From assembly GCA_965213705.1 (NCBI GenBank), contig OZ243913.1, positions 3,968,001 to 4,032,000 on the forward strand: a stretch of 64,000 bases of DNA. The letters run 5' to 3'. Made by a program: the position numbers and the translations under genes. The notes under the pieces are model-generated. The model was not told the DNA's origin, did not search any database, and saw nothing but the letters and a program-made list of their open reading frames with translations. The stretch is from Trueperaceae bacterium. GTDB lineage: Bacteria; Deinococcota; Deinococci; Deinococcales; Trueperaceae. Below are positions 34,550 through 37,689 of the stretch, one piece after another; positions within the stretch are counted from its first letter, which is position 1, and every line of letters starts with the position of its first letter.

Positions 34550-35830
34550 TTACGGCTGTAATCTGCTCCCGTCCCGCGGAAAGGCTCGAGCAAACCTCAC
34601 GTTGGAAATCCCCAACAGCAGCGCCGTAAGCCGCTCCGCGCCGATGGCGAAGCCGCCGTGGGGCGGCATCCCGTGTTTGAACACCTGCAAGTAGCCCGCA
34701 AACGCCTCGGGGTTCATGTTGCGCTTTTTCAACTCCTCGACGAGCATAGCGTACTCGTTCACCCGCTGCCCGCCCGAGGTGATTTCGACGCCCCGAAAAA
34801 TCAGGTCGAGGCCGCGGGTGAGGCCGTTCTCGAGCGGATACGTGTAAAAGGGCCGCGCCGCCTGCGGGTAATGCGTGACGAACACGAAGTCGCTGCCGTA
34901 CTCCTCCAAAGCCCAGCGGCTGATTAAGCGCTCGGCCTCGGGGTCCAAGTCTTTGCCGCCCGAGGCGTGACCGTAGCGTTCCTTGACGATTTCGCGCGCC
35001 TCGATCAGCGGTACCCGCGGGAAGGCCACGTCAAGGTTGGGGATTTTTGCGTTCAGCAGCTCGAGCTGCGCCGCGCAGGTCTCCCCCACCTCTGCCATGA
35101 TGTTTTTAATCAGCGCTTCTTCCAAGTCCATCACGTCGCCGTCATCCTCGATAAAGCCCAGCTCCACGTCGAGCGACAGGTATTCGGCGAGGTGGCGGCT
35201 CGTGTTGGACAGCTCGGCGCGGTAGACCGGGGCTACTTCAAACACGCGCTCGAACACGCCGACCATGATTTGCTTGTAGAGTTGCGGCGACTGCGCCAGG
35301 TACGCGCGCCTGCCGTAATAGTCGACCTCGAACAAATTAGCGCCGCCCTCCGCGCCCGCCGCGACGAGCTTGGGCGTGAAGATTTCGGTGAAGTCCTGCG
35401 CGTTCAAGTAAGCGCGGAACGCCCGTACTAGTTCGGCCTGCACCTTCAGCGTCGCCTTGGCCTTGAGGCCGCGCACCGAGACGTGGCGGTACTCGAGCAA
35501 GGTTTCCGGGTTGGCCTGCCAGTCCTCTTTGGGCAATTCAATGGGGGTGGGCTCGGTGGCTTCGCTAAGGGTCTCGAGCGTGTGCGCCTGCACCTCCAGA
35601 CCGCCCGGCGCTTTTTTGTTTTCGACCACTTTGCCGGTCACACGCACGCTGCTTTCGGCGAGCGGGATGCTCGTGTTTTCGAAAACGCACTGCACCGTGC
35701 CGCTGCGGTCGCGCAGGATTAAAAAGCTGACGCCGCCCAGGTCGCGGCGGTTGTGAACCCAACCCTGCAGGGTGACTTCTTTGCCTACGTGAGCGGGCAG
35801 AGTCGAGACGAGCGTTCGCGTTTCTGTCAT
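34550..35830 (-). CDS. aspS: Non-discriminating (archaeal-type) aspartyl-tRNA synthetase
   Basis: 426 aa with no GAD insertion; GWVHNRRDLGG, AEGGA, LAQSPQLYKQ, ITSGGQR, PPHGGFAIGAER, FPRD. Confidence 0.93.
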   Translation of the reverse strand: MTETRTLVSTLPAHVGKEVTLQGWVHNRRDLGGVSFLILRDRSGTVQCVFENTSIPLAESSVRVTGKVVENKKAPGGLEVQAHTLETLSEATEPTPIELPKEDWQANPETLLEYRHVSVRGLKAKATLKVQAELVRAFRAYLNAQDFTEIFTPKLVAAGAEGGANLFEVDYYGRRAYLAQSPQLYKQIMVGVFERVFEVAPVYRAELSNTSRHLAEYLSLDVELGFIEDDGDVMDLEEALIKNIMAEVGETCAAQLELLNAKIPNLDVAFPRVPLIEAREIVKERYGHASGGKDLDPEAERLISRWALEEYGSDFVFVTHYPQAARPFYTYPLENGLTRGLDLIFRGVEITSGGQRVNEYAMLVEELKKRNMNPEAFAGYLQVFKHGMPPHGGFAIGAERLTALLLGISNVRFARAFPRDGSRLQP

Positions 35831-35854
35831 AAGTTTCCCTTCGAGCCGCGCCCC

Positions 35855-35886
35855 AAACAAAAACCCCGAGGCTCTAGCCTCGGGGT
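35855..35886 (-). terminator. Attenuator terminator upstream of aspS
   Basis: ACCCCGAGGC-UAGA-GCCUCGGGGU followed by UUUUGUUU. Confidence 0.85.
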
Positions 35887-35907
35887 GAACGGCGGTGACC
35901 GACGCTT

Positions 35908-35964
35908 TTACGCCCCGAGACCTCCGCCGAAATTATCGTCGCTGTAGTTGAAGCGCGTCGTCAT
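35908..35964 (-). CDS. Leader peptide MTTRFNYSDDNFGGGLGA
   Basis: 18 codons with N6, D9, D10, N11; 3' end carries the antiterminator strand. Confidence 0.75.
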   Translation of the reverse strand: MTTRFNYSDDNFGGGLGA

Positions 35965-35972
35965 CGCCGGGT

Positions 35973-36001
35973 ATCGTAGCAGGGGGGCTGTAGCGTGTCA
36001 A
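35973..36001 (-). promoter_or_regulatory. Sigma70 promoter of the leader-aspS transcript
   Basis: TTGACA (36001-35996)-17 nt-TACGAT (35978-35973) with extended TG. Confidence 0.85.
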
Positions 36002-36022
36002 CAGCGGCGGGCTCGAGCCGCC

Positions 36023-36370
36023 TCAACCCCTGAGCTGTTCCAGGGTGATGCCCAAGGCGTTGGCGACCTTCTCGAGCGTAGCTTTGCGGGGCCGCTTGGC
36101 GGCTTCGGTTTGTGAAAGGGACGCCTGTGAAACGCCCATGCGGGCGGCGACTTCTTCTTGAGAGAGGTTCAGGTACTCGCGCCAGGCTTTTACCATCGAC
36201 ACCTCTTCACCGATGGAACGCTTGACCACTTCCCAAGGTATGTAGGGGTCTTCGGGTATTCGGGAGTTGCCAAGTAACTGTGGCGCGTGTTCGCGCAGAA
36301 CGTCGGTAGGAACGAGTGCGTAGTTACGGCCTTCTATAGTGAGCGTTTGAACTTCAGTAGGTGTGGTCAT
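36023..36370 (-). CDS. HigA-like XRE antitoxin
   Basis: AWREYLNLSQEEVAARMGVSQASLSQ HTH; downstream of the toxin. Confidence 0.88.
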   Translation of the reverse strand: MTTPTEVQTLTIEGRNYALVPTDVLREHAPQLLGNSRIPEDPYIPWEVVKRSIGEEVSMVKAWREYLNLSQEEVAARMGVSQASLSQTEAAKRPRKATLEKVANALGITLEQLRG

Positions 36371-36617
36371 CTCGCCTTTCAACCTCCTCAATAAAAATAA
36401 CTCTAACGTCTTTGCCCACGTCGAAAAAGACGCGAAACCTGCCGACGCGTAAGCGGTAACCGTAGGTATGACGGGTGAGCGCTTTGACCCCCGTGACCTC
36501 GGGCCAGTTGGCAAGCGCACCGATAGCATCTTCCAATGCCTGATAGTCGCGACGATATTTCTTAGCAAGCTTGCGAAGTTGTCTCGCAGCTTTTGCCTGT
36601 ACCCTCACCGAATACAC
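36354..36617 (-). CDS. RelE/HigB family toxin
   Basis: VKAL...YRLRVGRFRVFF...EEVERRDDHTY; leaderless TATAGT-6-GTG. Confidence 0.88.
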   Translation of the reverse strand: MYSVRVQAKAARQLRKLAKKYRRDYQALEDAIGALANWPEVTGVKALTRHTYGYRLRVGRFRVFFDVGKDVRVIFIEEVERRDDHTY

Positions 36618-36625
36618 AACTGTAC

Positions 36626-36645
36626 TATAAGCTTTCTATAAGCTT
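36626..36645. promoter_or_regulatory. Probable TA operator
   Basis: TATAAGCTT repeated twice with 11-bp spacing over the -10 region. Confidence 0.55.
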
Positions 36646-36790
36646 GTATCACTATCAAAAACACTTTTGATGAGCGAGAACTAGCCGCCTTACACCGCCC
36701 GCTCGTTCCGCTCGGGCTCGAGCCTACACACTAACAGGTTGAGTAGCGCCTAAACCTTAAAAGCCCTATGATAAAAGTACGCGTGACGAA

Positions 36791-36975
36791 ATGCTCGACA
36801 GAATTACCCTCGACCTTGCCGTCTGCCACGGTTAAGCCCTGCGCGGTTTGCGTTATCCCGTCGAGACCCTGCTCGAGCTGCTAGGGAGCGGTATTTTTTT
36901 GACGAAATCTTGGCAGATTATAAAGACTCAGAACGCGAAGACGTAAAGGCGGCTTTGACTTATGCTGCTCGCTAA
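36791..36975 (+). pseudogene. DUF433 antitoxin-like pseudogene
   Basis: MLDRITLDLAVCHG*ALRGLRYPVETLLELLGSG, frameshift, DEILADY...[14 protein letters not shown]. Confidence 0.8.
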
Positions 36976-37379
36976 CGTAGGTAGCCCTCGAGCCTCCGAA
37001 CATGCTCCACGTCCTTGGGCCTGTTGAGCTTCCGTTTGAACGCCAACACGTCGTGCAAACTAGCAAAAGGCAAACCGTTTATCAGCACGGCCCGGTCGAT
37101 AATCGCGTCTGTGTCCATGTCCAGCCAGCCGTCGAAAACGTCCACGCCGTCCGCTAAGCGAATTATCCTATCGCCGTCGGGAGCCGTTTCTAAACTGCCG
37201 AGCGTAGTTGCCTTGAGCCAGGCCGCGCCTCGAGCCAGCAGGTCAACGTCGCCGACGTGCTCGACGAGTCCGTGCGCCAACAACGGGCCGCTGCCGAAGA
37301 CGGCGTAGTCCTGCGGAGGCAGACACAGCGCTGAGACTCGAGCTTTAAGTTCGGTAAGTGTTAGGCTAATTTGTGACAA
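36972..37379 (-). CDS. Hypothetical protein with a nucleotidyltransferase-like motif
   Basis: YAVFGSGPL...GDVDLL...RPKD; start codon uncertain. Confidence 0.65.
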
Positions 37380-37689
37380 CCGCCGTCCCGTTCGCGGTGA
37401 CCAGGAGCATACTGCCCGAGTCGCCGAAGGTGATGTTCTCATAGTCGAGGTCTACACCGACGATGGCGTTGGCCCCGAGCTTTTCAGCCGCCTCTTGCAT
37501 TTCGCGGAGCGCTATTTCTTTGGCCTCGCGCAGCGCCTGTTCGTAAGCGCCGCTGCGCCCGCCGACGATGTTGCGGATGTTGGCGAAAAAGTCGCGGAAG
37601 ACGTTCGCGCCCAAAATCGCCTCGCCCGAGACGATGCCTTTAGACTCCCGAATCTCCTTGCCCTGCACGACCGAGGTGGTAACCAACAT
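37366..37689 (-). CDS. YbjQ/UPF0145 family protein
   Basis: [10 protein letters not shown]...GGRSGAYE...[13 protein letters not shown]...GTAV; GGAGG SD. Confidence 0.92.

Follow-up and report, generated by a model that had tools for sequence, protein, structure and literature searches.

A predicted ribosome-coupled attenuator with a leaderless Asn/Asp-rich leader peptide upstream of aspS2 in the Deinococcota

The classical leader-peptide attenuators are those of trp, his, thr, pheA and pheST in E. coli. In clostridia the pathway of the non-discriminating aspartyl-tRNA synthetase (ND-AspRS) and GatCAB is reportedly controlled by a T-box (papers of 2012 and 2013), in which tRNA charging sets antitermination through direct binding of the tRNA and without translation. 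The closest described system comes from Deinococcus deserti, in a study that also summarises the trp attenuator and reports putative attenuation leaders, 14 in number and all leaderless (de Groot et al., 2014; PMC4007540). Its Table S9 includes Deide_10019, MFAALANNNDNDPH, as the putative attenuation leader of Deide_10020, “Aspartyl-tRNA synthetase, non-discriminating”, and its supplement maps the primary transcription start site (TSS) to the first base of the leader ATG (1191 reads), with TEX-treated reads on the 45-nt leader and on the 1290-nt gene numbering 724 versus 36 and 631 versus 28. The Deide_10019 entry gives only the peptide, TSS and read counts, no helices or test being seen there, and a term search of the main text returns neither “aspS” nor “asparag”. 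An earlier note on the DNA analysed here knew of no description of such an attenuator for aspS, but Deide_10019 is one; since the attenuator idea was already printed as a one-line prediction, the value of the present work lies in anatomy, conservation and codon choice rather than in discovery. New here are the three-helix anatomy and the strong preference for the rare codons AAU and GAU. No experimental study of an aspS2 leader in any organism was found in the mainly open-access literature searched, and the excerpts of PMC4833913 make no mention of such a leader.

The window, a stretch of 64,000 nt from a Trueperaceae bacterium, carries on its minus strand aspS2, whose product exceeds the cut-offs of NCBIfam models PRK05159 (563.6 bits, cut-off 353) and TIGR00458 (409.9, cut-off 368.4) and has T. 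thermophilus AspRS2 (1n9w, E 4.9e-174) as its closest solved structure; the nearest named aspS2 loci are those of Trueperaceae. The genome (98% complete) encodes AsnRS, bacterial AspRS1, GatB and a single tRNA-Asn with U1-A72. By orthology with T. thermophilus AspRS2 and from this U1-A72 pair, AspRS2 probably aspartylates tRNA-Asn. Neither AsnA nor AsnB was found in the genome, its sole Asn_synthase match reading by eye as GMP synthase. AsnB-family proteins may act on other substrates. In D. radiodurans and T. thermophilus a second AspRS together with GatCAB is described as producing Asn on the tRNA (PMC4206432). As the genome has AsnRS as well as a second AspRS, AspRS2 with GatCAB is better read as an Asn-making route than as a substitute for an absent AsnRS and, since it is the only Asn route found in the genome, a device controlling aspS2 would act as feedback on tRNA-dependent asparagine synthesis. 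Because AsnB-family genes score above cut-off in 36 of 80 genomes, AspRS2 with GatCAB can be called the sole Asn route with confidence only in genomes resembling this one, and elsewhere in the family this may fail. The elements in and upstream of aspS2 are as follows.

35973..36001, minus strand: sigma70-type promoter, TTGACA-17-TACGAT with extended TG (sequence; TTGAC-17/18-TAnnnT at the equivalent place in orthologues)
35908..35964, minus strand: near-leaderless leader ORF, MTTRFNYSDDNFGGGLGA and a stop, 18 codons (sequence; orthologues; TSS of the D. deserti counterpart at the A of its ATG)
35949-35947, minus strand: additional Asn codon N6 (sequence)
35932..35940, minus strand: putative control codons D9-D10-N11, GAC GAT AAT (leader codon conservation and codon usage)
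35911..35922, minus strand: predicted antiterminator 5' arm (segment 2), within the final leader codons (folding, covariation)
35877..35886, minus strand: predicted shared arm (segment 3), pairing with segment 2 or with the terminator 3' arm (folding, covariation)
35855..35886, minus strand: predicted intrinsic terminator, 10-bp stem, 4-nt loop, U tract 35862-35855 (sequence and folding)
35836..35842, minus strand: Shine-Dalgarno (SD)-like GAAGGGA, 5 nt upstream of the aspS2 ATG (read from sequence)
34550..35830, minus strand: aspS2, archaeal-type non-discriminating aspartate--tRNA(Asn) ligase, 426 aa (NCBIfam, structure match)

The promoter, leader ORF, antiterminator and terminator had all been named in the earlier note, and each is found as claimed: TTGACA (36001-35996), a 17-nt spacer with TG (35981-35980) and TACGAT (35978-35973) on the minus strand, matching consensus at 10 of 12 positions; an ATG 8 nt after the -10 box that opens the ORF 35964-35908 with N6, D9, D10 and N11; GGUCUCGGGGCG (35922-35911), able to form 10 bp with the 5' arm of the terminator; and a 10-bp stem (35886-35863) with a U tract to 35855, 24 nt upstream of the aspS ATG (35830). 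No SD is seen upstream of the leader ATG at 35964. Leaderless genes of this genome show a peak of -10-to-ATG spacers (166 at 6 nt, 113 at 7 nt and 59 at 8 nt, over a background of 12-32), so that with its 8-nt spacer, on the shoulder of the peak, the leader probably starts 1-2 nt before its AUG. Folded alone, the antiterminator segment reaches -24.0 kcal/mol with its inner hairpin included and the terminator stem -20.6 kcal/mol. The parts in isolation are weak proof, because single promoter-like matches in the region number 2 versus 1.3 in shuffles and terminator-like matches 6 versus 5.0; genome-wide, 117 promoter-plus-ATG sites yield 42 short closed ORFs, of which only the aspS2 leader has adjacent D/N codons. 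The interval 35400-36184 is identical (0 differences) in assembled contigs from two runs of one sample, a match that is not independent since this is possibly the source sample. A search of the leader region against Rfam brought no family near its gathering score, and the T-box riboswitch (RF00230) gave no match up to E=10 in 35000-37000, the leader being about 135 nt long; a T-box or other Rfam family is thus ruled out as its identity. An RNA model of the element matches only the aspS2 site (scores from 150 of 1321 candidates), and no such leader is apparent by eye upstream of asnS, aspS1 or gatB in the genome.

The window leader and Deide_10019 share the regulated gene, a leaderless N/D-rich mini-ORF and, as far as the D. 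deserti entry goes, the proposal of transcription attenuation. In our set, locus L158 encodes the 14-residue peptide of Deide_10019, and its promoter, G-tract, C-tract and terminator are arranged as in the window; with the same position before orthologous aspS2, the same layout and a continuous distribution in the phylum, the two leaders are orthologues. They differ in that the window ORF extends 7 codons beyond the D/N run and has the antiterminator inside it, whereas the Deinococcus antiterminator lies after the stop codon. Like the classical attenuators, the window element has control codons, mutually exclusive antiterminator and terminator, a U tract and a position before a biosynthetic or synthetase gene; unlike them, it combines leaderless initiation with Asn/Asp codons, and control codons in such leaders are few (1-6). 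The clostridial T-box controls the same pathway by charging, but the window has no T-box match.

Taken together, these features very likely describe a ribosome-coupled transcription attenuator that governs aspS2. Sequence and computation supply the parts, their conservation and frame, the covariation and the exclusion between helices, and from these we infer translation, stalling, termination and the amino acid sensed. Transcription would begin at the leader AUG or 1-2 nt before it, a start predicted here and mapped in D. deserti, and translation would proceed without an SD. When Asn-tRNA-Asn or Asp-tRNA-Asp is abundant, the ribosome would clear D9-D10-N11 and come to sit over GGUCUCGGGG; with this segment covered, the 10-bp terminator would fold and a transcript of ~110 nt would be released. 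When the charged tRNA is scarce, the ribosome would pause at D9-N11, codons that end 9-15 nt upstream of the antiterminator arm, and GGUCUCGGGG could pair with CCCCGAGGCU ahead of synthesis of the terminator 3' arm, so that the polymerase would continue into aspS2. Such a device would give the tRNA-dependent asparagine synthesis of Thermus and Deinococcus, where the pathway was worked out, a concrete point of control, and suggests that leaderless ribosomes can drive attenuation; the 9-codon Thermus-type or 14-codon Deinococcus-type leader could serve as a simple reporter of Asn/Asp charging.

One line of support for this reading is conservation. The phylum sample comprises 301 genomes, 289 of them with aspS2 (a tally that includes G251), and 120 upstream regions picked for genus spread, plus the window, gave 121 loci from five Deinococcota families (f1-f5), the kin among which are not independent. 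Leader calls started from the best promoter and ignored the encoded peptide, and the remainder was read manually. The leader occurs in all five families; it looks intact in 108 of the 121 loci (two of these cut by contig ends), is degenerate in 2 (L122, L140) and is missing in 11. Promoter-based calls led to a short closed ORF in 110 of 121 loci, and 98 of these 110 contain adjacent D/N codons, L120 spuriously; each of the two alternative frames has 1 such case, and the shuffle expectation is 3.9. D and N together make up 26% of leader codons in frame versus 1.5% in the other frames of the 110 calls, and although the D/N run begins anywhere from 1 to 28 codons after the start, the frame is kept. 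Typical forms are DDN-x5-LGA in f1, NDDPR in f2 (Deinococcaceae), DDN or NN with one or two further codons in f3, NNDR in f4 and DDDN in f5. The comparison of ND-aspS upstream regions across Deinococcota that the earlier note had proposed thus recovers a conserved D/N-rich upstream ORF and a covarying antiterminator stem. Conservation among orthologues lies far above chance; the element is real, is common to the Deinococcus-Thermus group and, judged from sequence, very probably functions.

Departures from the common form were also seen. Five leaders with terminators have N only (L178, L191, L192, L193, L200), and D-only leaders with intact helices occur (L125, L136, L196; also L009). Loss of AspRS1 is ruled out as the cause of the D-only form, aspS1 being present in 79 of 80 genomes; three of the four D-only leaders, a set of four leaders only, are in genomes with AsnB-family genes (G162, G164, G200; not G195). 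L140 (G206:C2:214790-215270) precedes a second aspS2 copy with an internal TGA, and a long insertion in the leader puts NND out of frame with the promoter-proximal ATG. In L137 (G294) and L121 (G245) the conserved promoter abuts aspS2 and the attenuator is absent, with the pheS attenuator retained. Three genomes of one genus (G168, G170, G194; genus g14) have AT-rich upstream regions in which no aspS2, pheS or leuS attenuator was seen, and in these asnS was not found and GatB is present. A link between attenuator loss and AsnRS loss was rejected, since this is a single, non-specific event in one genus in which the pheS and leuS attenuators are also unseen; at 1e-100, asnS was missed in 5 of 80 genomes, the three of g14 and two (G193, G229) in which it is split over contigs. 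Outside the phylum, 36 aspS2-related loci show no D/N ORF at the leader position; 18 of the 36 carry a T-box-like motif, and the Rfam gathering score was reached by 1 of 6 tested. T-box-like motifs stand before ND-AspRS-like genes in one Candidatus Adlerbacteria and two Thermomicrobiales records (L046, L056, L057), those of L056 and L057 falling below the gathering score.

Codon choice within the leaders is also distinctive. In 39 of the 44 Deinococcota loci with full genes (four loci lacking the leader and one truncated omitted; the set overlaps the 121 loci), Asn is encoded by AAT at 38 of 74 leader positions versus 28 of 284 in the corresponding aspS2 genes, and Asp by GAT at 38 of 81 versus 100 of 729; for the other NNT/NNC pairs the NNT counts are 56 of 247 in leaders and 1035 of 8040 in aspS2 genes. 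The final Asn of the run is AAU in 38/41 leaders of f1, 16/22 of f2, 13/15 of f3, 2/10 of f4 and 4/5 of f5, and the genome uses AAT at 3.0 and AAC at 26.2 per thousand codons. RNA pairing was rejected as the reason for the AAU bias, the third base being predicted unpaired in 31 of 36 cases. Slowly read AAU and GAU codons may be under selection in the leaders. The conserved L-G-A of the leader peptide (CTC GGG GCN) is explained by the antiterminator 5' arm that lies in those codons; LGA as an arrest peptide was set aside, its codons being nearly fixed (CTC in 33/47, GGG in 41/47), as the antiterminator predicts, and no RAGP motif was seen among the leader peptides.

The predicted RNA structures agree with the attenuator reading. 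In 46 of the 47 f1 leaders (L085 omitted as a near duplicate), 90.7% of cells of the antiterminator helix are paired and two-sided changes occur at 5 of 8 pairs; none of 500 shuffles reached as high and every slid control was lower, a result that relatedness inflates. Some base changes traverse all three arms (L097, L099). Folding of the alternative structures, likewise proposed earlier, gives a predicted antiterminator and terminator that are mutually exclusive, and attenuation as such is now backed by phylum-wide and reading-frame conservation, covariation and folding. In the nascent RNA of the window, the antiterminator is predicted with P of at least 0.99 when the ribosome stalls no later than F12 or G13, and stalls beyond that abolish it. 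On the attenuator reading, a stall at an N/D codon should free the antiterminator and a ribosome at the stop should mask it; 100 of 103 leaders behave in this way when modelled with a 9-nt footprint, and 102 of 103 with a 12-nt footprint, a result partly built in by the anchoring of C tracts (five called loci lacking a proper leader and two lacking a C tract were omitted); a cruder, unanchored pass that used the last D/N codon only predicts the switch in 68 of 108 leaders. In the equilibrium fold of the full window leader the terminator dominates in every ribosome state (P of at least 0.99), and readthrough would therefore require kinetic trapping of the antiterminator. Without a ribosome, the antiterminator is also predicted to form on nascent RNA, both for the window and for 61 of 103 leaders. 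The consensus fold of the Deinococcaceae (18 of 22 leaders; L151, L153, L154 and L195 omitted) contains a protector 1:2 hairpin formed from the D-P codons, plus the terminator, and in free Deinococcaceae RNA the antiterminator forms in 3 of 22 leaders. No protector helix was found in the window fold, and a conserved one in f1 was rejected because alifold gave none; in contrast to trp, no conserved 1:2 protector was found for f1, and its untranslated RNA is predicted to read through.

Which amino acid such a switch would sense is a finer question, and here Asn would likely be the main signal, with Asp a plausible second one. At its fullest, the attenuator would be a phylum-wide leaderless two-input device reading both tRNA outputs of AspRS2/GatCAB and tuned by selection for rare wobble codons, AAU and GAU, where the ribosome stalls, a tentative proposal that we hold at well under even odds. 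If true, it would do by translation what the clostridial T-box does for this pathway, and given the AAU/GAU tuning, its set point may also vary with the state of the anticodon in the lone tRNA-Asn and tRNA-Asp, tgt being present in the genome. A reading in which only shortage of Asn-tRNA-Asn induces, the Asp codons being kept mainly for pairing in the protector hairpin, is possible but doubtful. It would account for GAUCCCC (D-P) of the Deinococcaceae, which pairs with a downstream GGGGA, for the five N-only leaders, for the discriminating AspRS1 in 79 of 80 genomes and for the model outcome in f4, where with a 12-nt footprint the antiterminator is freed by a D stall in 1 of 11 leaders and by an N stall in 10 of 11. 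The D-only leaders with intact helices speak for an Asp input instead, as do Asp codons that vary between GAC and GAT and are GAT-enriched as the Asn codons are AAT-enriched, and D stalls that are modelled as permissive in 96 of 103 leaders (9-nt footprint).

Two further explanations touch the specificity of the signal and the nature of the run. That the leader is translated and its terminator dampens aspS2, with output set by how fast ribosomes translate or load in general and not by Asn/Asp charging, would fit the window, in which a stall anywhere up to codon 13, or absence of the ribosome, leaves the antiterminator free, and rare U-ending codons would constitutively slow ribosomes; we nevertheless consider it improbable, because enrichment falls on precisely those two residues whose tRNAs are substrates of AspRS2, leaders elsewhere in the genome have different residues, and in L158 the antiterminator is freed only by stalls at N/D codons. 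The conserved GAYAAT could also act at the DNA level as an internal -10 box, launching a transcript shortly upstream of the antiterminator; this would yield basal readthrough and account for some of the codon bias. The GATAAT of the window, at 35937-35932, ends 9 nt upstream of the antiterminator, and in D. deserti a further start, TEX-enriched and supported by 348 reads, lies inside the leader at -93 with GATAAT as its -10 motif (PMC4007540, Tables S5 and S8). Yet a -35 box at constant distance is absent, since the distance from ATG to run varies, the hexamer is missing from the AACAAC leaders of Thermus type and the AAYAACGAY leaders of f4, and conservation of frame would go unexplained; such a box is thus at most an added feature, and as the explanation it is very unlikely.

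The aspS2 device is one of a set, as like-built leaders stand before pheS, leuS, alaS, ilvB and leuC in the same genome. Leader ORFs with terminators precede pheS, leuS, ilvB and leuC (G000:C1:3490026, 2863451, 2657921 and 2410966, minus strand; L227-L230), matching targets in Table S9 of de Groot et al. (PMC4007540), and the pheS leader is also present in G294 and G245. At G000:C1:2577979, minus strand (L225), a near-leaderless MMLPQPRAA with a stop and a terminator precedes alaS (NCBIfam TIGR00344), forming a candidate attenuator for Ala; the 14 leader targets given in that Table S9 do not include alaS. At G000:C1:3493898, minus strand (L226), MSLAPRAF with a stop and a terminator precedes a 386-aa protein that has no NCBIfam match at 1e-60 and looks by eye like a class V aminotransferase. 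In the window, a ParE/RelE-family toxin and HTH antitoxin pair (36023-36617, minus strand) adjoins the aspS2 promoter upstream, in this locus only among 44, and an unannotated 156-aa gene (36972-37442) lies near aspS2 in 6 of the 44. Elsewhere in the genome, two IS630-type transposase-like ORFs, recognised by eye, lie immediately upstream of aspS1 (G000:C1:2454433-2455484, minus strand).
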